Source: Escherichia coli | GTDB taxonomy: Bacteria; Pseudomonadota; Gammaproteobacteria; Enterobacterales; Enterobacteriaceae | DNA length: 64,000 nt | Assembly: GCF_016026235.1 (NCBI RefSeq) | Contig: NZ_CP065613.1 | Direction: 5' to 3' (one strand) | Shown here: positions 821 to 29,766 of the stretch, in pieces | Layout: each line of letters begins with the position of its first letter | How positions within the stretch are numbered: the stretch's first letter is position 1 | The notes under the pieces: generated by a model | The model's database searches: none | Told to the model about the DNA's origin: nothing | What the model saw: only the letters and a program-made list of their open reading frames with translations | Position numbers and translations under genes: made by a program

Positions 821-1849
821 ATGATAATTTCTAAAAAACAGCTTATTGGGGTGGTAGCGATCGGTATTCTTTTGACTGGCGTTGTCTTTTTTATCTGGTG
901 GGTAAGCAAAGGAAGATTTATACAGACGACGGATGATGCTTACATTGGTGGTAATATCACCACGGTGGCAAGTAAAGTTTCTGGTTATATTTCTGCTATA
1001 GAGGTGCGCGATAATCAGAGCGTAAAAAAAGGCGATATTATCCTGCGTCTCGATGATCGGGATTATCGTGCAAATGTCGCCAGGCTTGAGGCAAAAATAA
1101 AAAGTAGCAAAGCCAATCTCGAAGGCATTCAAGCCACTATTGCGATGCAGCAGTCGATAATTCAAAGTGCCAGTGAAACATGGCAGGCAGTAAAACATGA
1201 GGAGCAAAAGCGCCTGCGAGATACTGAACGTTATGAAAAACTCGCACAATCAGCGGCAATATCGCAACAAATTATTGATAACGCCAGGTTTGACTACCAG
1301 CAGGTCGCAGCAAAGGAGCGCAAAGCCGCGAACGATTTCCTGGTGGAGAAGCAACGGCTGGCAGTTTTATCTGCTCAGGAAGAAAACGTACGTGCGAGTA
1401 TCGAAGAAGTTCAGGCCGCTTTGACTCAGGCACTACTGGATCTGGAATATACCCTTGTGCGTGCGCCGATTGATGGCATTGTCGCAAACCGCAGCGCCCA
1501 TACAGGCAGTTGGGTGGAAGGCGGCACATCGTTAGTTTCACTAGTACCAGTCAGTGAGTTGTGGGTTGATGCAAATTATAAAGAAAACCAAATAGCGGGA
1601 ATGAAGCCAGGAATGAAGGCTGAGATCCGTGCTGATATTCTCAAAGGGGAAGTGTTTCACGGTCACATTGAAAGCCTTTCCCCAGCGACAGGAGCCAGTT
1701 TCAGCTTGATTCCGATAGAAAATGCCACTGGCAATTTCACCAAAATTGTTCAGCGTGTCCCGGTACGGATTGCATTTGACGACGCAAAGGAATTAAAGCA
1801 ACTTCTTCGCCCGGGACTGTCCGTCACCGTCAGTGTTGATGAGAGATGA
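821..1849 (+). CDS. EmrA/HlyD-family membrane fusion protein of a multidrug efflux pump
   Basis: 343-aa ORF with N-terminal TM helix and EmrA-like blocks (TDDAYIGGN, WVDANYKENQI, TGNFTKIVQRVPVRI); 4-nt overlap with the downstream transporter gene. Confidence 0.8.
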   Translation: MIISKKQLIGVVAIGILLTGVVFFIWWVSKGRFIQTTDDAYIGGNITTVASKVSGYISAIEVRDNQSVKKGDIILRLDDRDYRANVARLEAKIKSSKANLEGIQATIAMQQSIIQSASETWQAVKHEEQKRLRDTERYEKLAQSAAISQQIIDNARFDYQQVAAKERKAANDFLVEKQRLAVLSAQEENVRASIEEVQAALTQALLDLEYTLVRAPIDGIVANRSAHTGSWVEGGTSLVSLVPVSELWVDANYKENQIAGMKPGMKAEIRADILKGEVFHGHIESLSPATGASFSLIPIENATGNFTKIVQRVPVRIAFDDAKELKQLLRPGLSVTVSVDER

Positions 1850-3359
1850 TGTCTATGCGTAAACATATTGCTTTCGCCAGTATGTGTATGGGATTATTTA
1901 TTGCTCAGCTTGATATTCAAATTGTATCGTCATCCCTAAATGAAATAGGTGGTGGTTTGTCCGCAGGTAAAGACGAAATGGCCTGGCTTCAGACCAGCTA
2001 TTTAATTGCTGAGATTATTGTTATTCCGCTCTCTGGGTGGCTGTCACGGGTATTTTCCACTCGTTGGCTTTTTACTCTATCCGCGGGAATATTTACTTTA
2101 ATGAGTATCGCGTGTGGACTTGCATGGAATATTCAGATCATGATTTTGTTTCGTGCTTTACAGGGAGCTGCTGGCGCATCCATGATCCCTTTAGTTTTCA
2201 CGACGGCGTTTATTTATTACCAGGGTAAAGAGTTGGGGTTGGCTGCTGCGGTAGTCAGTGCGCTGGCCTCACTGTCACCGACGCTAGGGCCAACTCTGGG
2301 GGGCTGGATCACTGATAACCTCGACTGGCGATGGCTATTTTATATCAATATATTACCTGGCATATATTTAGTTTTGAGTATTCCTTTTCTGGTTAATTTT
2401 GATAAACCTGATCTCTCTTTACTGAAAGTTGCTGATTATCCGAGTATTATCCTGTTGGCCATGACTCTGGGATGTCTGGAATATACCCTTGAAGAAGGAG
2501 CGCGCTGGGGATGGCTGGATGATAATACTATTTTGCTGACATCAGTTCTGGCATTGGTGAGTTTTATTTTATTTGCTGCGCGTACACTTACAATATCCAA
2601 TCCGATAATGGATCTTCATGCTTTTAAGGATAAAAATTTCACTCTGGGATGTTTTTTTTCTTTTTCTGGAGGGGTTGGGATATTCTCTACTGTATATTTA
2701 ATACCTGTGTTTTTGGGGCAGATTCGCGGATTAAATGCCGAAGAGATAGGTTTTGCCGTTTGCACAACAGGTATTTTCCAGTTATTTTCTGTTCCCTTTT
2801 ACTTCTGGTTAAGTAAAAAAATAAATCTGCGATGGCTGTTGATGGCGGGGCTGGGCGGATTTGTGTTTTCAATGTATCTTTTTACCCCTATAACCCACGA
2901 ATGGGGATGGCAGGAATTACTGTTTCCACAGGCAATTAGAGGGATTTCGCAGCAGTTTGCGATGGCCCCATCGTAACATTAACGCTAGGGGGAATTCCAA
3001 AAGAACGGCTGAAGTTAGCCTCTGGTGTATTTAATTTAACACGTAATCTTGGGGGCGCGATTGGTATTGCCCTGTGTGGCTCTATTCTCAATAATCGAAC
3101 TAATTTTCATTTTTCGCGAATGGGTGAAAAAATGGTTTCTGTTCCCCATACGGTGAATGACTTCATTTCCAGAAGTGCTTTATTTTTTAATCGCAGTGGA
3201 AGTGACCAGACATCGGAAATACTGGCTTCAACCAAATTATTGAGTCAATTGATGCTGAGGGAGGCGCAAACTATGGCATTTTCGGATACCTTTCTGCTAA
3301 TCAGTGGTCTGTTATTTATCGCATTTTTGTTGGTTCCTGCTATGAATAAATCATCCTGA
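1846..3359 (+). CDS. EmrB-like MFS (DHA2) efflux transporter, reading frame broken once
   Basis: 376-aa ORF ends at 2976; the C-terminal ~125 aa continue in the -1 frame from 2979 (…LTLGGIPKERL…). Adding one C to the C4 run at 2966..2969 restores a ~504-aa protein. Confidence 0.7.
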
Positions 3360-11126: not shown

Positions 11127-11315
11127 TCACGAGGACTGAAGTTTCTCGCAATTAAAATTTATCAGTTTTACTTTCTGCTCTCTGGAAACGCCTGCTTCTT
11201 TTTCCCCTGAGAGCATTTTTTCGCATTCTGATTTCGTTAGTTTTGTCTTTGAGTATCTTGTCCAGCTGGCAGGAGAACCACCTTCCTTTTCAATAGTGGC
11301 TGTAATTTTATACAT
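11127..11315 (-). CDS. Hypothetical phage protein (62 aa)
   Basis: ATG preceded by GGAGGTG; no recognisable motif. Confidence 0.4.
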   Translation of the reverse strand: MYKITATIEKEGGSPASWTRYSKTKLTKSECEKMLSGEKEAGVSREQKVKLINFNCEKLQSS

Positions 11316-11354: not shown

Positions 11355-12452
11355 TTACACCGGAATATTCTCATCGTATCCTGCTTGTTGCGTTTCGTTT
11401 TGTGTTTGTGGATCCGGGAATGCATATTCAACGCCTTCCAGTTCAATCCATAGTGCATTACGACCAGCTTTGATTGTCGGCCAGTCCATACCTTTGATTC
11501 TTTCCCATGAGCGGGAGGTGAATGTTTTTTCCAGCAAATCAGCTTTTGCGCGTTTGGCGTCGTTACTGGTGCCCCCATGGTGCTTGTTGAGCAACTCGAT
11601 AATTTCATCAAGTGCGATTTCTTTTGCACGCTTTTCTTTTAGCCATGTCGGTGTACCGTCGTTGGCAAATAATTCACTGTTATCCCGTGAGGTATCGATG
11701 CCGAGGTGTTCACCTCCCAGGTTAAGAAACTCGATATGAGGAAGAAAGTTTTTAAATGTTGGGTTTGAAAATACCTGTCCATCAATACGGGTGGAGCGAT
11801 CTTTTAGTATTCTGGCGGTGCGCCACACCTGACCGGTTTCTATGTTCATTTGCTTCTCCATCTGGATCAGGATGGAGGGTTCATAACCGGTTTCTGTTTC
11901 TGCTTTCATTTTTATACCGGTTTTTGCCAACTGGCGTTTGCCATCATCACCTTCGAAAAAGTCATACTCATATCCTGCACGCCCGCACATAATAATGTGC
12001 GCCTGACTGTTAACAAATCGATCGGTAAAGCGTCGCCACTCCTGTTTGAGCCACGCCCAGTCTGAAAATTCCAGTCCTCGTTTACGGTTTCGGCGTCTGG
12101 CATACTCGTCGCATAATCCGGTCCAGAAGTGACTGATGGAGTCGATGATCATTACGGAACCGCTGCTTTCCGCTTCATTAATGGCTTCAAGCAGATCAAC
12201 AAACGAGCGGGTTTTTGCCGTAAATAATTCGATATTTTCCGCATCAAAGCGGGGTTTAACCCAGTCAGAGCCTGTTTCTGTGTCCAGAAACATTACCGGG
12301 CGGTTACCAGCTTCAATTCCCCGTTGCCGCATAAGCATTACCAGACCAATAGCCAGTTCGCTTGCTGTGTAGGTTTTGCCGTCGCCAGCAAACCCCATAA
12401 TTCCTGCTTTTAGATAGGCCTGTGTGTTTATTGCTCGTTGAAAAAGCGCCAT
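11355..12452 (-). CDS. RecA-fold P-loop ATPase, Sak4-like
   Basis: 365 aa; Walker A GFAGDGKTYTA and Walker-B-like VMIIDSISHFW; strong SD; sits in the recombination-module position next to int/xis. Confidence 0.55.
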   Translation of the reverse strand: MALFQRAINTQAYLKAGIMGFAGDGKTYTASELAIGLVMLMRQRGIEAGNRPVMFLDTETGSDWVKPRFDAENIELFTAKTRSFVDLLEAINEAESSGSVMIIDSISHFWTGLCDEYARRRNRKRGLEFSDWAWLKQEWRRFTDRFVNSQAHIIMCGRAGYEYDFFEGDDGKRQLAKTGIKMKAETETGYEPSILIQMEKQMNIETGQVWRTARILKDRSTRIDGQVFSNPTFKNFLPHIEFLNLGGEHLGIDTSRDNSELFANDGTPTWLKEKRAKEIALDEIIELLNKHHGGTSNDAKRAKADLLEKTFTSRSWERIKGMDWPTIKAGRNALWIELEGVEYAFPDPQTQNETQQAGYDENIPV

Positions 12453-12457
12453 AGATT

Positions 12458-12757
12458 TTAGTCCTCCAAATCAATATCAACCTGGTGGTGGGCAATGGTT
12501 TCAGCCATGTACCGGATGTGTTCTGCCATGCGCTCCTGAAACTCAACATCATCATCAAATGCGTGGCTGATTGCCTGTTTATTGGCACCGTGGCGTTGCA
12601 AATGGTCGATGCAGAGCGATTCAAACAGGTGCTGAGGCAGACCTTTTTCCAGGTCGTCCGCCAGTTCCGTTTCTTTTTCTTCACGAACGATCTGCTGGTA
12701 GTGGCGAGCCCATGCCATTTCTTCAATACGATCAAAAATCGGGTAAGCGCTCATCAC
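12458..12757 (-). CDS. Hypothetical acidic phage protein (99 aa)
   Basis: ORF only; translationally packed between the large early gene and the ATPase gene. Confidence 0.4.
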
Positions 12758-13106
12758 TGGTCACTCCAAAATTTTCAAGCTTGTTGGCAATCATCATTGC
12801 GATGTCAGGGATTGCAGGCGCATAGGCTATGCACGCAGGATTCGCACATAAACCGTAAACCGCCGCAATCAACACCTGTTTTTTCCAGTTGAGTTCATCT
12901 TCGCCAGTTTCATTATTGCTATCATTATGCTGATCGCTGCCAGCGTTCTCCGGTAACAAATCATCAGCTTTTCCGTTTTCTTCGGCTCTTCTTCCTGTGC
13001 TTCATCTGGTTTTTTTTCGTCAAAAGTTTCCTGATAAGTTGCGTCTCCCATCACCGCGCCACAGTCAGGGCAGTTATCCTCGCCAGTCTGATTGCAGGGT
13101 GTTCCC
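12732..13106 (-). pseudogene. C-terminal remnant of the large early-left gene, cut off by the IS10-like insertion and carrying a further frame break
   Basis: Reading from the target duplication at 13106 continues the 14401..15975 frame (…[16 protein letters not shown]…); switches to the -1 frame at a T4/A4 run near 12969..12979 and ends at 12732. Confidence 0.5.
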
Positions 13107-14400
13107 CTGAGGGATCCCCAGAAAATTTAGTAAACCATTATCATATTGGTATACCGTTGCTGTAGAACTTTCAGCCCTGCGTCAAGTGACAGTGTGTTTA
13201 GTATGAGTGGAGAATGTCGAATCACATTCTCCGCCAGTTTTAATAACGAGATGACTCGCCTGTGCTTCACTGTATTTGCCTGATATTTATGATGTATCCC
13301 TTTGTTTTCCAGGCTGAAACCGCTTAACCACATAATGATACTGGCTAATGTTGCGATCAGACTCAATACCGTGACCCGCCCGGATGAATGACTGGCACCA
13401 AACCGTAGTCCAAATCCCCAGCGAGGATTTTTTTCATCCCTGAAATTTTGCTCAATTTGCATTCTACGGCTGTATAATTTCATTACCTGTTTTGGCGAGA
13501 ACTCAGTACTGTTTGTGAAAATAAACCATGGTGATTTCCCGGCAGTACGAGCTTTAGCCGTCACCGATGGTCTGGTTGCTCTTTCCTTCGAGCGTTTAAA
13601 TCTACGACCTTTAGGCTTACTTTTATAAAGATAAAAATGCCCTTCATGTTGTGCATTTTTATCTCGACCCAGCAGGCCTTCACCTAAATAAATTGCTGTC
13701 GTTGATGCTTTTGTGCCTGAGTCCGACACCTTTTCCCAGCCATTACCAACATTGTAATAATGATTGCCCAGTACCCGGCAAATATAGGTCCAGCCACGGG
13801 AGCGGAGCTGTTGGAACCATCGCCCCTGAAAACCGGCATCTGTAATAACAATGACATCAGTCCCGGGGGAAAAGCACTCAGCAAGCGATTCCAGAAAACG
13901 CTCATGTACATCTGCATTCGCTGTCTGTGATGATGGAACGACACAACTCATCAACGGTAAAGAACGCCCGTCACATGCCAGGCTTGCCCGCAAAAGCTGA
14001 AAACGAGAGGCATGATAAGCACTCCAGTCAATGAGTATCACAACACGAGACATTCCCCGCGTAATCTTTTGGGTAATTCGCTGAAAAATGGTGGAAACCT
14101 CATTTTGCAAATGTCGATTCCCCAACAGTCGATCCACCCGCTTTATTTTGTTTTTAACTGATGCCGTACCGGTTAAATGACGCCCGATACTGGTAAGTGT
14201 GAGGGAAGCGCCATTTATTACAGCATTAGTTGCGTCAATCAGTGATTTTTGACGGTAAAGATGCAAAGGGGCCAGTATGTTGTTAAGGAAATTTTGGCAT
14301 AATGAACGTGCAGGCATAGTGGTGATCTCCTTGAAATTGTTAGCACAATCAATTAGATCACATCTCACTATGCCTGTCTTGTTTTCTGGGGATTCCTCAG
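13107..14400. mobile_element. IS10-like insertion sequence (IS4 family), 1294 bp
   Basis: Ends CTGAGGGATCCCCAGAAAA / TTTTCTGGGGATTCCTCAG (about 22-bp imperfect inverted repeats, IS10-like CTGA termini); flanked by direct repeat GGGTGTTCCC at 13097..13106 and 14401..14410. Confidence 0.8.
13127..14317 (-). CDS. IS10-like transposase (DDE, IS4 family)
   Basis: Blocks resembling IS10 transposase as I recall it: KRVDRLLGNRHL, VILIDWS, ITDAGFQGRWF, YSRRMQIEQNFRDEK, QANTVKHRRV; ORF extends to 14368. Confidence 0.8.
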   Translation of the reverse strand: MPARSLCQNFLNNILAPLHLYRQKSLIDATNAVINGASLTLTSIGRHLTGTASVKNKIKRVDRLLGNRHLQNEVSTIFQRITQKITRGMSRVVILIDWSAYHASRFQLLRASLACDGRSLPLMSCVVPSSQTANADVHERFLESLAECFSPGTDVIVITDAGFQGRWFQQLRSRGWTYICRVLGNHYYNVGNGWEKVSDSGTKASTTAIYLGEGLLGRDKNAQHEGHFYLYKSKPKGRRFKRSKERATRPSVTAKARTAGKSPWFIFTNSTEFSPKQVMKLYSRRMQIEQNFRDEKNPRWGFGLRFGASHSSGRVTVLSLIATLASIIMWLSGFSLENKGIHHKYQANTVKHRRVISLLKLAENVIRHSPLILNTLSLDAGLKVLQQRYTNMIMVY

Positions 14401-15975
14401 GGGTGTTCCCTCCTCCGGTTCGCTGTTCTGGTGCTGTTTATCTTCAGTCTGTCGCACTTCATTTTCCGTTTTTTTGACTTCATTTGAGGAGATATGATGA
14501 CCGGGAATCCATTTCGGATCATTCGGGTCGCTAATCCCTTCAACAAATTCTCCGCGAGAGGCAGCCAGTAATTTGTCTGCATCGACAGGATTTTTGGGCG
14601 GAATGTTTTTCCGGGCTTCATGGAGTTCTGCCCGCAGTTCCTGATATTTCTCATCAACAGCATTTACCTGTGACTGAGCATCCAGCGGCTGCGTGTCCTG
14701 ATGATGTTCAGTTGCATCCGGTTCCACTGTTTCAGCCGTTGCCTGTTCATCTGCCATTGCGCAAGATGGTTGCGGTTTTTCTTCATCATCCTGTTTTCCT
14801 TCTTCTGTTACTCGCTGCGGCATCGGGGCAGAGGAGCGACCGCAGGCAATATCCACGATTTCCGGATCAGGGTTGGCATGATCGGTTTCAGTCAGTACCT
14901 TGTTCAGATATTCAGTGACGTGCGCGGGGATGACCTCGATACCAATCGGTGCTTCTTTCACTGACGCAACCACGATGGCGCGGGAATAATCCATCCCGCC
15001 AGGCATGGTGATGAATTTGTCGCGGAAAACAGAAAAGGGCGGTTTATTTTCAGTGATAATTTCCTCAATGCGTTTAGCGTGTGCCGGATGAAGATTATAA
15101 ATATCCACGTCCATTGAACGGGCCAGTACGCCAGTGGCTACGTCGCGCGCCAGCGACGTCAGATCGTGGACGAAACCTTCGCCGCGATCGGTGAGGTTCC
15201 CGCCGCCAGCATTAGCACCGGAAGCCGTGCGAGTGATACGCGAAACACGATTTCCTTTCATCCACTCTTTTGTCAGCAGACCGCGATCGGTGTAGTTGGC
15301 ATCCAGATATGCTTCGAAAAAAGCAGTCATCAGTCCCAGATTTGAATTGCCAGGATTAGGGAAAACTTTGTCAGTATCACGCACGAGTTTGTGGAGGTCG
15401 CGAATCTCCAGCGGGTCGAGCAGACTGGTTTTATGCGAAACAGCCAGAGCAGTAACAGCCGGTAGTTCTTCATCCCGAGCAATGTGTAATGCCTGGAGTT
15501 CGTCGCGTGAAACGTGCGTTACCGGTTTTTCGCTGCCGTGTTGCGCAAGCCAACGAATGGGCAGTTCCTGACCGGAAACTGGCAGGAGCATGTTCTCCTC
15601 AATTTCTGTCATGTCTTCGCCGTTGACGTTGGTATTGTCAGTGCTGGCTGGTTTGTCCTGAACAGAGGGAGAAGATGCGATAAATACCATTGTGATGCCA
15701 TCTTCCCCGCCTTTTTCGTAACGGTTGCAGAATTCCGTATCAAACACGCCTTCTGGTGGGAGGTCATCAACAACGGGCAAATTGACGCGAACAGGTTTTT
15801 TAAAGTCATCTTCATCGTAGCCAGCATCGTCAATCGCAACAGCACCACGGGAGATGGCAATGGATAATTTTTTCGCTTCAGCCCAGTAAAAACCGCCTTT
15901 AATACCGAGGCGTTTTCTTACTTTGTCATTTTTTGCTTCGTAATACAGTGGGTAAACTTGTTTATCGGTGCTCAT
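14401..15975 (-). CDS. Large acidic early-left phage protein, 3' end truncated by the IS insertion
   Basis: 535-aa ORF whose last 10 codons plus stop (14368..14400) are IS-derived; original product about 650 aa; no P-loop or other motif recognised. Confidence 0.5.
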
Positions 15976-17213: not shown

Positions 17214-17378
17214 AATGACATCCTCAAGTGATAAGTTAATTAACTCACCAGCAGAGGTGCTAATCTCATGGGTGGTGAGACGCACAGGGTTAGCACTACC
17301 GGTCACTCGAGAACCCGGCCAGCCTTGCGGCTGCCCCGCACGCCTCACCATAATTTGAATGTGGCTGTGCATTACGCA

Positions 17379-17402
17379 TAAAAAAACCGCTTCAGCGCGG
17401 TT
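17379..17402 (-). terminator. Rho-independent terminator (minus strand)
   Basis: Minus-strand read AACCGCGCTGAAGCGGTTTTTTT; lies inside the upstream extension of the Rha ORF. Confidence 0.45.
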
Positions 17403-17529
17403 ATGCGCTCGAGTAACTTTCGGGGTGCTAATCCCGGCACCCGTTTTATGAGGTGCAGGTGCACTATAATTCCACCCGTTCTGGTTTTCAATAGCTACAT
17501 TCAACATTTTCTCTTTCCTTTCATCACCG

Positions 17530-22432: not shown

Positions 22433-22475
22433 GTAAAATTAGCTATGAAGTGGTCAACAAAAACTGGCCACCGAG

Positions 22476-23659
<1,184 letters not shown>

Positions 23660-23742
23660 CTCTGTTCAGGTGGCCAAATTCAGTAAACCACTTCACTATC
23701 AGGCTTCAATTACCGCTGGTATTCGCATCAAAGGAGAGGAGC

Positions 23743-25921: not shown

Positions 25922-26258
25922 AAGGAAACAAAACAGAAACAGCAATTGCCGTTACCTGTTGTTACCATGGCAAGTAAACGTATCTCAGGCGAGCGCATTG
26001 CGCCGTTCTGACGCAGATAAACTAGCCTGGATAGATGGTGCTGGCAATAAAAAATAGCGTTTTCTTATCGGTGTCGGTAAGATTGCTGCGGGTGCTTGAG
26101 GCTGTCTGCCTCGGGCATGTCACTGTAAGGCAGACAGAGAAAAGCCCCAGTTAACATTACGCGTCCTGCAAGACGCTTAACATTAATCTGAGGCCCAATC
26201 TATGTCTCACAAATGTAGGTTAGCCTCTTACGTGCCGAAAGGCAAGGAGAAGCAGGCT

Positions 26259-26414
26259 ATGAAGCAGCAAAAGGCGATGTTAATCGCCCTGATCGTCATC
26301 TGTTTAACCGTCATTGTGACGGCACTGGTAACGAGGAAAGACCTCTGCGAGGTACGAATCCGAACCGGCCAGACGGAGGTCGCTGTCTTCGTAGACTACG
26401 AATCTAGAGAGTAA
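26259..26414 (+). CDS. Hok/Gef-family type I toxin
   Basis: 51 aa MKQQKAMLIALIVICLTVIVTALVTRKDLCEVRIRTGQTEVAVFVDYESRE; an in-frame upstream extension (26202) resembles a mok-like leader. Confidence 0.75.
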   Translation: MKQQKAMLIALIVICLTVIVTALVTRKDLCEVRIRTGQTEVAVFVDYESRE

Positions 26415-28417: not shown

Positions 28418-28689
28418 CTCAATCTGTTATCCGGGGCTATATTCCTCACGCGCCAGCAAAATCTGGCGTCGGGATTGGCGTCCCGGATGTTTACGGAGCG
28501 ATATGAGACGCGCCCGCGTCTTTTTTCATATCGTTTGCACAGTCTCATTCGCGATTTATGGCGGGCTGTGTGGGGGAGCCGAAAGGCTCGCCGGTTTCCG
28601 TACCCGGTTACGCCAACCCTGCACAGTTCGCCACCAGTTCGATTGGCGTCGTCGGTGGCGATAATTTCCAAATGTACGGAGTTATCGTT

Positions 28690-29247
28690 ATGACCACTCA
28701 AATCTCTGTTGAAACTCTCTCCCCGATCACCCATAACCAGATTCCTGTTATTACCACCGAACTTTTGGCGCAGCTTTACGGCACTGAGCCGGTGCGTATT
28801 CGCCAGAATCATCATGAGAACAAAGTACGCTTCGTTGAAGGGAAACACTTTTTCAAAGTTGTTGGTAATGACCTTAAAGAATTGCGGGTAGCTTTAAACT
28901 ACTCACAAAATCCCATCTCTCCCAAAGCCCGCTCCCTCATCCTCTGGACAGAACGAGGCGCAGCACGCCACGCCAAAATGCTCGAAACCGATCAGGCGTG
29001 GGATGTGTTCGAAAAACTGGAAGACTGCTATTTCAGTCAAAAGGATCCGTCAACGCCAGTTTCATGCCAGAAAAGTTACGACACGCGAGTTCTCTGTTAT
29101 CAGAGAGGCGGTGTCACTGTTTCCACAATTCAGTTACGGGATGATGATATTGTTATTTCCCTTGAGTCATGGCTGGAACTGGCGAGAGCCAATGGTTGGT
29201 TTGTTGTTCGCAGAGATAAACTGGTGGAAAGGTTGATGCAGCTTTAA
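28690..29247 (+). CDS. KilA-N/Bro-N-type antirepressor-like protein
   Basis: MTTQISVETLSPITHNQIPVITTELLAQLYGTEPVRIRQNHHENKVRFVEGKHFF… resembles phage antirepressor N-terminal domains. Confidence 0.5.
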   Translation: MTTQISVETLSPITHNQIPVITTELLAQLYGTEPVRIRQNHHENKVRFVEGKHFFKVVGNDLKELRVALNYSQNPISPKARSLILWTERGAARHAKMLETDQAWDVFEKLEDCYFSQKDPSTPVSCQKSYDTRVLCYQRGGVTVSTIQLRDDDIVISLESWLELARANGWFVVRRDKLVERLMQL

Positions 29248-29455: not shown

Positions 29456-29532
29456 GGCCCTTTAGCTCAGTTGGTCAGAGCGAGCGACTCATAATCGCCA
29501 GGTCGCTGGTTCAAGTCCAGCAAGGGCCACCA
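29456..29532 (+). tRNA. tRNA with anticodon CAU (Ile2/Met-like, ileZ-type)
   Basis: Cloverleaf by eye: acceptor GGCCCTT/AAGGGCC, anticodon loop CTCATAA, T-arm GCTGGTTCAAGTCCAGC, 3' CCA encoded. Confidence 0.8.
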
Positions 29533-29533
29533 A

Positions 29534-29610
29534 CCACCACTAGCTCATCCGGATAGAGCATCAACCTTCTAAGTTGACGGTGCGAGGTTCGAGTCCTCGG
29601 TGGTGGGCCA
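29534..29610 (+). tRNA. tRNA-Arg (anticodon UCU) with atypical 5' C-start acceptor stem
   Basis: Acceptor CCACCAC/GTGGTGG, anticodon loop CTTCTAA, T-arm CGAGGTTCGAGTCCTCG, CCA encoded. Confidence 0.65.
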
Positions 29611-29612
29611 GC

Positions 29613-29688
<76 letters not shown>

Positions 29689-29691
29689 TAT

Positions 29692-29766
<75 letters not shown>

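Follow-up and report, generated by a model that had tools for sequence, protein, structure and literature searches.

The ISEc60 insertion that truncates a RecE-family gene of an Escherichia coli prophage very probably lies where it does because of the target preference of the element, not because of selection on the domain that was lost, which would make it a case of ordinary gene decay. We propose that, in the window (the whole 64,000-nucleotide stretch of DNA analysed), a copy of ISEc60 moved by cut-and-paste into a preferred palindromic GGG-WWWW-CCC target, with a 10-bp staggered cut at codons 523-526 of a 646-aa nuclease-less RecE-family gene in the early-left (pL) operon. The protein would then consist of 525 host residues and 10 IS-encoded ones, its Cys cluster, acidic linker and hydrophobic tail being cut off, and gam, which overlaps the gene, was probably expressed less too, as were the genes further downstream, through a presumed polar effect. 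The event would be one step of the IS-driven prophage decay typical of enteroinvasive E. coli (EIEC) and Shigella, followed by clonal inheritance.

The element and its insertion site are made up as follows:

13107..14400, minus strand: complete copy of ISEc60, 1294 bp, with 100% identity to PGAP-annotated ISEc60 copies
13097..13106, no strand: left copy of the target-site duplication, GGGTGTTCCC, found once in strain VL7S7, where the site is empty
14401..14410, no strand: right copy of the target-site duplication, GGGTGTTCCC
13107..13125, plus strand: terminal inverted repeat on the 3′ side of the transposase gene, CTGAGGGATCCCCAGAAAA
14382..14400, minus strand: terminal inverted repeat on the 5′ side of the transposase gene, CTGAGGAATCCCCAGAAAA

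The copy has CTGAGG at both ends and is flanked by a perfect 10-bp duplication of GGGTGTTCCC, at 13097-13106 and 14401-14410, in agreement with a preliminary description of this DNA, which had recognized a 1294-bp element with CTGA termini between direct repeats. The same description gave inverted repeats of about 22 bp. Our repeat search of the window did return a 22-bp pair (13104-13125 and 14382-14403, 95%), but only because the palindromic target (GGG...CCC) lengthens the repeat by 3 nt; the element's own inverted repeats are 19 nt long, with 18 of 19 positions matching and no chance matches in 100 shuffles. To call the insertion in-frame, as was done previously, is meaningless, since the IS provides a stop codon after 10 codons.

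To judge from sequence identity, the element is ISEc60, an already-named member of the IS4 family. Its full 1294 bp match copies in the CFSAN029787, RMDEC, VL and FDAARGOS_943 genomes at 100% identity, and the name rests on the PGAP label of these identical copies ('IS4-like element ISEc60 family transposase'). Compared to ISEc60 in EIEC genomes such as CFSAN029787, the DNA, the 396-aa transposase, the inverted repeats and the 10-bp duplication are the same and the location alone differs. Copies covering at least 80% of the element length occur in only 14 of 5426 E. coli genomes, with a maximum of 39 places in one genome. Identical multiple copies with fresh duplications, at up to 39 places per genome, are an indirect sign of activity, and the copy described here is complete and presumably active. 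A PDB search with the transposase gave no match, and a literature search on ISEc60 found two passing mentions, in which its properties are not described.

The transposase was delimited as follows:

13127..14317, minus strand: transposase coding sequence, 396 aa, with limits from PGAP and motifs from an alignment with ISSfl1 and IS10A

It is encoded by one open reading frame without a programmed frameshift, which is among the defining properties of the IS4 family (PMC2266710). The DDE triad consists of D97, D160 and E289, all three of which are conserved without change in ISSfl1 and IS10A when the proteins are aligned, and which are separated by 62 and 128 residues, within the D(60-110)D(100-150)E spacing of the family. 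The YREK signature, Y-(2)-R-(3)-E-(6)-K, reads Y282 SR R285 MQI E289 QNFRDE K296, and the NCBIfam IS4 transposase model NF033591 reaches 360.3 bits, above its curated cut-off of 152. Terminal inverted repeats (here 19 nt, 18/19) and a target duplication close to one helical turn in length (here 10 bp) are likewise family traits. Within it, the length of 1294 bp and the CTGAGG ends fall in the range of the IS10 subgroup (1200-1350 bp, 5′-CT ends); the subgroup's 9-bp direct repeat, however, is replaced by a 10-bp duplication in every copy with matching flanks, two of which can also be read as 11 bp.

The suspicion that the element, being only moderately similar to IS10, might be a distinct IS4-family member was borne out: the transposase lies on the IS10 branch with 36% amino-acid identity. 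Shared with IS10/Tn10 (IS10A, ISVsa5) are the single-ORF DDE transposase with YREK, the 5′-CT termini, a size of 1200-1350 bp and the preference for a palindromic target. The duplication differs (10 bp in ISEc60, 9 bp in IS10), as does the target, GGG-WWWW-CCC for ISEc60 and GNNGCTNAGCNNC for IS10 (PMC2577343 Table 1). The closest named relative found is ISSfl1 of the Shigella flexneri pINV plasmid, at 52% amino-acid identity; its terminal repeat (CTGAGGAATCCCCAGAAAAC) is almost the same, and its leader forms the same hairpin, with compensatory changes. At the sequence level it is a distinct element. In the form of its target motif ISEc60 resembles IS231A, an IS4-family element of Bacillus thuringiensis that inserts at GGG-N5-CCC with a duplication of the length of the motif, 11 bp (PMC2577343 Table 1), although IS231A belongs to another subgroup, has CAT ends and has a motif one base longer.

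All 14 distinct ISEc60 insertion sites carry 10-bp duplications with the consensus GGG-WWWW-CCC, these 14 being natural sites, some of them from a few related genomes. In symmetrized counts, position 1 is G in 27 of 28 cases and positions 2-3 in 22 of 28, the center is A/T-rich, and about half of the sites lie at the center of GC-rich hairpins. The 62.7-kb restored window contains only six GGGN4CCC sites; exactly one falls within the recE-like gene, at codons 523-526 of 646, and it is the one used by the IS. The 10-bp GGG-WWWW-CCC rule, similar to that of IS231A and not to that of IS10, may be without a formal description.

The leader of the transposase gene could fold into a structure that overlaps the end of the host reading frame:

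14311..14376, minus strand: leader hairpin, candidate fold-back structure, from an 11-nt perfect inverted repeat and folding

The predicted fold has a minimum free energy of -37.9 kcal/mol (z = -5.6), and its 3′ arm holds the transposase AUG and most of the Shine-Dalgarno sequence. The leader of ISSfl1 folds likewise, and compensatory changes at two hairpin pairs among five relatives are suggestive but, with five sequences, not significant. A relative with 82% identity (TC24) folds poorly (z = -0.97), this copy being a decayed pseudogene. The hairpin is a candidate silencer of read-through transcripts and could act like the fold-back inhibition of IS10, a mechanism reportedly worked out by Davis, Simons and Kleckner in 1985. 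The host ORF stop codon (TAG, 14370-14368) falls within the 5′ arm; a ribosome reaching the end of the host ORF could thus melt the hairpin, which could couple transposase synthesis to prophage induction. A sigma-70 scan of the minus-strand leader region (14290-14400) found no consensus promoter. By eye, a weak AAGACA-17-TCTAAT promoter candidate can be read in the IS leader, as a guess.

The interrupted gene is now in two pieces, the second of which carries a further lesion:

14368..15975, minus strand: truncated RecE-family ORF, 535 aa (525 host plus 10 IS-encoded residues, TAG at 14370-14368)
12732..13096, minus strand: severed 3′ remnant of the gene, its last 121 codons, from comparison with the 646-aa alleles in L001 and L018 and alignment
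12969..12972, no strand: run of four T, a -1 frameshift; every uninterrupted allele has five

These limits confirm the preliminary description of an interrupted early-left prophage gene whose product gains 10 IS-encoded residues and a stop codon and loses roughly 120 residues, Cys cluster included; relative to the intact 646-aa allele, the loss is 121 residues. The Cys cluster is encoded in the remnant, together with an acidic linker and a hydrophobic tail that is conserved. We make no claim of a membrane anchor for this tail, as its maximum hydropathy over 19 residues, 1.31, is too low, being under the usual transmembrane threshold. In the window, the part of the gene beyond the IS no longer forms an intact reading frame, owing to the 1-nt frameshift, which is absent from the earlier account and is found also in GCA_014155105.1.

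That account had also missed that the interrupted gene is of the RecE family, without the nuclease domain. Domain matches indicate that the intact gene naturally lacks the C-terminal exonuclease domain. PF06630, the N-terminal Exonuc_VIII region, matches residues 52-189 of the intact allele (E = 1.9e-37); NF007259 scores 980 bits, below its cut-off of 1269 bits, and covers profile positions 1-523 only. In the PDB, the intact 646-aa allele had no match, whereas classical RecE matches 3H4R at residues 605-866. The gene shares with recE (exodeoxyribonuclease VIII) of Rac about 590 N-terminal residues, including PF06630 and the Cys cluster, the operon position after ydaE/racC-like genes and the chromosomal attachment site. 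In contrast, the C-terminal nuclease domain of Rac RecE (PDB 3H4R, residues 605-866) is replaced by a hydrophobic tail of about 55 residues, and the next gene is gam, not recT. Full-length intact versions are found in phages deposited as complete Stx-phage genomes, e.g. 75/02 Stx and POCJ13.

The prophage is lambdoid and integrated at the Rac (ttcA) attachment site of an EIEC lineage. On the minus strand the gene order is recE-like, gam, AAA ATPase, DUF1187, xis, int, the two genes after the recE-like gene being:

12458..12757, minus strand: gam-like host-nuclease inhibitor gene (phrog_259, PGAP), whose start overlaps the end of the intact RecE-family ORF
11355..12452, minus strand: AAA_24 ATPase gene, distantly Sak4-like, next in the operon

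An adjacent recT annealase partner is absent, gam and then the AAA_24 ATPase gene following instead; related phages have gam, bet and exo in that order. In strain VL7S7 this prophage, likewise at ttcA, has an empty site, that is, one GGGTGTTCCC and a 646-aa ORF; apart from this, 12 substitutions distinguish its gene from that of the window. VL7S7 has an IS911 between gam and the ATPase gene, and in VL40 an IS600 sits near the N-terminus of the recE-like gene, after about 70 codons. A second IS, IS911-like, is found elsewhere in the prophage of the window.

The exact 535-aa fusion protein is present in at least six contigs from NCBI assemblies, including the EIEC O143:H26 strain 4608-58. These draft and WGS assemblies were identified only by looking up the exact protein; a junction search of the complete E. 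coli genomes in the collection found the insertion in none. The assemblies that share it are identical over 4.6-7.6 kb bar one homopolymer indel. Its presence in several EIEC assemblies makes the insertion a lineage marker.

Could the IS have been misplaced while assembling a repeat-rich genome? ISEc60 is multicopy in related genomes and the draft contigs L023-L025 stop at the IS boundary; however, the IS is flanked by an exact 10-bp duplication such as the element is expected to make, the 4.68-Mb contig of GCA_014155105.1 has the full junction-to-junction arrangement, and the right junction recurs with the same fusion ORF in three draft assemblies, so that an artefact is exceedingly improbable. 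The selection against the C-terminal domain that had been read from the position of the insertion raises a different question. Here, a toxic or otherwise harmful domain, the Cys cluster and tail, would have been lost to the advantage of the host, and the first 525 residues would have kept their use. The truncated ORF is indeed open for 535 codons, several assemblies of one lineage have the insertion in common, and the tail is kept among nuclease-less homologues and is therefore a genuine module. Yet the insertion point is the gene's only GGGN4CCC, the motif given by the consensus of 14 sites, and sister strains were hit elsewhere: the break by IS600 in VL40 leaves no sign of the N-terminal part being preserved, and the IS911 of VL7S7 lies in the operon outside the gene. 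In addition, the remnant has a second frameshift and the complete Stx-phage genomes keep the gene at full length. For the insertion shared between near-identical assemblies, the simplest explanation is clonal descent. We consider selection for loss of the domain very unlikely.

Selection might also have acted on polarity: with the pL operon broken ahead of gam, the ATPase gene, xis and int, early-left expression would be dampened, which would help to lock the prophage in place (domestication). The gene order fits such a scheme, and the intact ORF naturally ends in a stop codon that overlaps the start of gam, so the IS would abolish translational coupling; ISs have entered the same operon in sister strains too. 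Repeated IS hits are, however, predicted equally by neutral decay in IS-rich EIEC genomes, and the IS and the operon are co-oriented, so read-through transcription is possible; we regard this explanation as improbable. A functional insertion in the broad sense, combining tail loss, gam uncoupling and polarity on xis and int, with selection in EIEC O143 for operon silencing and prophage immobilization, also seems unlikely. A lineage-fixed insertion would be expected under selection as well, for example to silence the operon. We infer that the insertion was neutral, its position having been set by the target preference of ISEc60.

The case matters little beyond annotation. The PGAP pseudogene label 'RecE family, missing C-terminus' masks a conserved full-length nuclease-less ORF that complete Stx-phage genomes retain, and the insertion is a clonal marker for the EIEC lineage that includes strain 4608-58. 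ISEc60 has a clear GGG-WWWW-CCC target and a 10-bp duplication, against the 9 bp typical of the IS10 subgroup. More generally, where an IS lies within a gene can be decided wholly by the target motif of the element, and domain-sparing truncations should not be read as selection without a check of target preference and sister alleles.

The insertion in the prophage RecE-family gene is flanked by two copies of a target duplication, GGGTGTTCCC, at 13097-13106 and 14401-14410, as the preliminary description had recognised. The element between them spans 13107..14400 (1294 bp), and its termini, CTGAGGGATCCCCAGAAAA and (reverse complement) CTGAGGAATCCCCAGAAAA, match at 18 of 19 positions, with 0 chance matches in 100 shuffles. 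A repeat search does return the 22-bp inverted pair described earlier (13104-13125 / 14382-14403), but the element's own ends account for only 19 nt of it, because the palindromic target (GGG...CCC) adds 3 nt that do not belong to the element. The interrupted minus-strand ORF, 14368..15975, encodes 525 host residues followed by 10 IS-encoded residues and a TAG stop, the IS-encoded part being as had been proposed.

Copies with 100% identity over the 1294 bp occur in E. coli CFSAN029787, which the O96:H19 enteroinvasive E. coli (EIEC) literature cites, and in RMDEC332/364, VL46 and FDAARGOS_943; PGAP labels these copies 'IS4-like element ISEc60 family transposase'. Of 5426 complete E. coli genomes, only 14 have a copy with at least 80% coverage, with up to 39 places in a single genome. 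It carries one coding sequence:

13127..14317, minus strand: transposase CDS, 396 aa

The product scores 360 bits against NF033591 (cut-off 152) and is 52% identical to the transposase of ISSfl1 and 36% to that of IS10A/ISVsa5. It contains D97, D160 and E289, as well as Y282-x2-R285-x3-E289-x6-K296; DDE and YREK motifs are hallmarks of the IS4 family (PMC2266710). The size and CT ends of ISEc60 agree with the IS10 subgroup, whereas its 10-bp duplication does not (9 bp in that subgroup). The earlier view, a separate member of the IS4 family with only moderate similarity to IS10, is therefore essentially right, for an element that already bears the name ISEc60.

We reconstructed ISEc60 flanks from complete genomes and from ten more places found by exact-protein look-up. 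This yielded 14 distinct target sites, with a 10-bp duplication in every copy with matching flanks (two readable as 11 bp). The symmetrised counts (G in 27/28 at position 1 and in 22/28 at positions 2-3, mostly A/T at positions 4-7) give the consensus GGG-WWWW-CCC, which is like the IS231A target GGGNNNNNCCC (11-bp duplication) and unlike the Tn10 target GNNGCTNAGCNNC (9 bp; both PMC2577343 Table 1). About half of the sites are the centre of longer GC-rich, terminator-like palindromes, and several are occupied in both orientations in different strains. GGGN4CCC is rare, with 6 sites in the 62.7-kb restored window vs. about 16 expected from composition. Since the only such site in the RecE-family gene, at 13097, is the one taken by the IS, target preference fully explains the position of the element within the gene. 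Some flanks did not match among ISEc60 copies at comparison loci L031, L033 and L027/L028 (GCA_031665325.1, GCA_031665585.1), and one tandem pair had swapped flanks, indicating IS-mediated rearrangements in high-copy genomes.

The IS has the same orientation as the early-left (pL) operon, so that any read-through transcript runs into the transposase gene from its 5′ end. The IS leader, 14311-14376 (minus strand), is predicted to form a strong hairpin (-37.9 kcal/mol, z = -5.6):

14366-14376, minus strand: hairpin 5′ arm, predicted fold
14311-14321, minus strand: hairpin 3′ arm, holding the transposase AUG

The inner stem, GUGAUCU/AGAUCAC, covers part of the Shine-Dalgarno sequence. The same fold is predicted for the ISSfl1 leader (z = -4.35), and among five relatives 90% of cells pair, vs. 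at most 48% in slid controls. Compensatory changes occur at two pairs (UA/AU/CG; GC/AU), five sequences being too few for significance. IS10 avoids activation from external promoters by fold-back inhibition, and the similar ISEc60 hairpin is a candidate for an IS10-like mechanism. Because the TAG stop of the host ORF falls within the 5′ arm, it is conceivable, if speculative, that ribosomes translating this ORF might open the hairpin.

The genomic context of the window is the Rac attachment site: zntB, dbpA and ttcA come before a 411-aa integrase, and towards the opposite end are an OmpC-family porin gene and MicC. Against the RecE model NF007259, the interrupted ORF matches profile positions 1-523 only and the remnant beyond the IS (12732..13096, minus strand) positions 530-572. 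Eight complete genomes carry uninterrupted alleles (99.5-99.8% identity). The CFSAN029787 allele is a 646-aa ORF, with gam and an AAA ATPase gene next in order. In VL7S7, which carries this prophage at the ttcA site too, the IS flanks are contiguous, with one GGGTGTTCCC, and the ORF spans 646 aa. Besides the IS and one deleted T, 12 substitutions across the gene distinguish the window from VL7S7. The loss, put earlier at roughly 120 residues, is thus 121. The deleted T represents a lesion that the preliminary description overlooked: 12969-12972 is a T4 run in the window vs. T5 in every uninterrupted allele, a -1 frameshift that brings the remnant to a stop at 12869 instead of reading on to 12732. 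The T4 run is likewise present in GCA_014155105.1.

When intact, the product is not an exonuclease. Of RecE, it contains the N-terminal PF06630 region only, and nothing in it matches the RecE nuclease domain of known structure; in the classical RecE of phage vB_EcoS-666R9 (866 aa), residues 605-866 match 3H4R. In alignment, the nuclease-less form has a Cys cluster, an acidic linker and a conserved tail (~ WK.Q...AAVYGLCANPA...IANxLENFG), and the gam start overlaps its stop codon. A deletion of 15 residues in the allele lineage to which the window belongs had already left a single Cys where the cluster has its first CxxC. Stx phages 75/02 Stx and POCJ13, whose genomes are complete, encode a 682-aa nuclease-less form upstream of gam, bet and exo, and the insertion point is therefore not the natural end of the protein, an eventuality raised in the preliminary description. 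In the PGAP annotation, intact nuclease-less ORFs (646-671 aa; loci L001, L002 and, in VL7S7, L018) are flagged as pseudogenes with the remark 'missing C-terminus'; in Stx phages this architecture forms a complete CDS. The nuclease-less RecE-family ORF is conserved and systematically mislabelled.

Several other features were seen in the window. The RalA antitoxin sRNA lies at 11131-11309 (plus strand; full score, 207 bits), with no ralR toxin ORF visible; in relatives ralR is next to a DUF1187 gene, where the window has an AAA_24 ATPase gene instead. Four tRNA genes at 29456-29766 (plus strand; Met-CAT, Arg-TCT, Thr-TGT, Gly-TCC) follow a Q-like antiterminator gene and an anti-repressor gene (28558..29247) and precede the lysis genes, with no toxin gene evident in between. 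Two C4 antisense RNA/isrK modules (P1/P7-type immunity elements; 17268-17456, minus strand, and 28437-28638, plus strand) are at the 5′ ends of Rha/Ant-like genes, and a hok/sok-type sok RNA is at 26090-26264. An EmrB-like MFS efflux ORF (1846-2976, plus strand), preceded by an EmrA-like adaptor gene, covers profile positions 3-368 of 485 only, and truncation or a frameshift is possible.

The exact 535-aa fusion protein occurs in at least six contigs from NCBI assemblies (GCA_014155105.1, GCA_000805835.1, GCA_001907565.1 and GCA_001907385.1), GCA_000805835.1 (JTCO01) being EIEC O143:H26 strain 4608-58. Across 4.6-7.6 kb, a single T homopolymer indel (window 18152) is all that separates the window from the fusion-bearing loci of GCA_014155105.1 and 4608-58, near-identity which argues that the shared insertion reflects clonal descent.

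The preliminary description had proposed selection against the lost C-terminal domain, for which we found no supporting evidence: in sister strains, IS elements hit elsewhere in the same gene or operon. In VL40 (L019), IS600 breaks this gene of the same ttcA prophage near the N-terminus, about 70 codons in, and the gene additionally carries a C-terminal frameshift of its own. In VL7S7, the corresponding operon has an IS911 separating gam from the ATPase gene. The window prophage itself has a second IS, an IS911-like IS3-family element at ~22440-23690 (minus strand) in the replication/nin region:

23321..23659, minus strand: orfA, IS911-like
22476..23294, minus strand: orfB, IS911-like

The hits in VL40, VL7S7 and the window are independent and fall at differing positions, as IS-driven decay in IS-rich EIEC genomes would be expected to produce. 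A polar effect of the ISEc60 insertion on gam, xis and int may alternatively have been adaptive. Overall, the comparisons do not support the selection hypothesis; the prophage of this EIEC lineage is decaying, and the IS insertion is a routine event within it.
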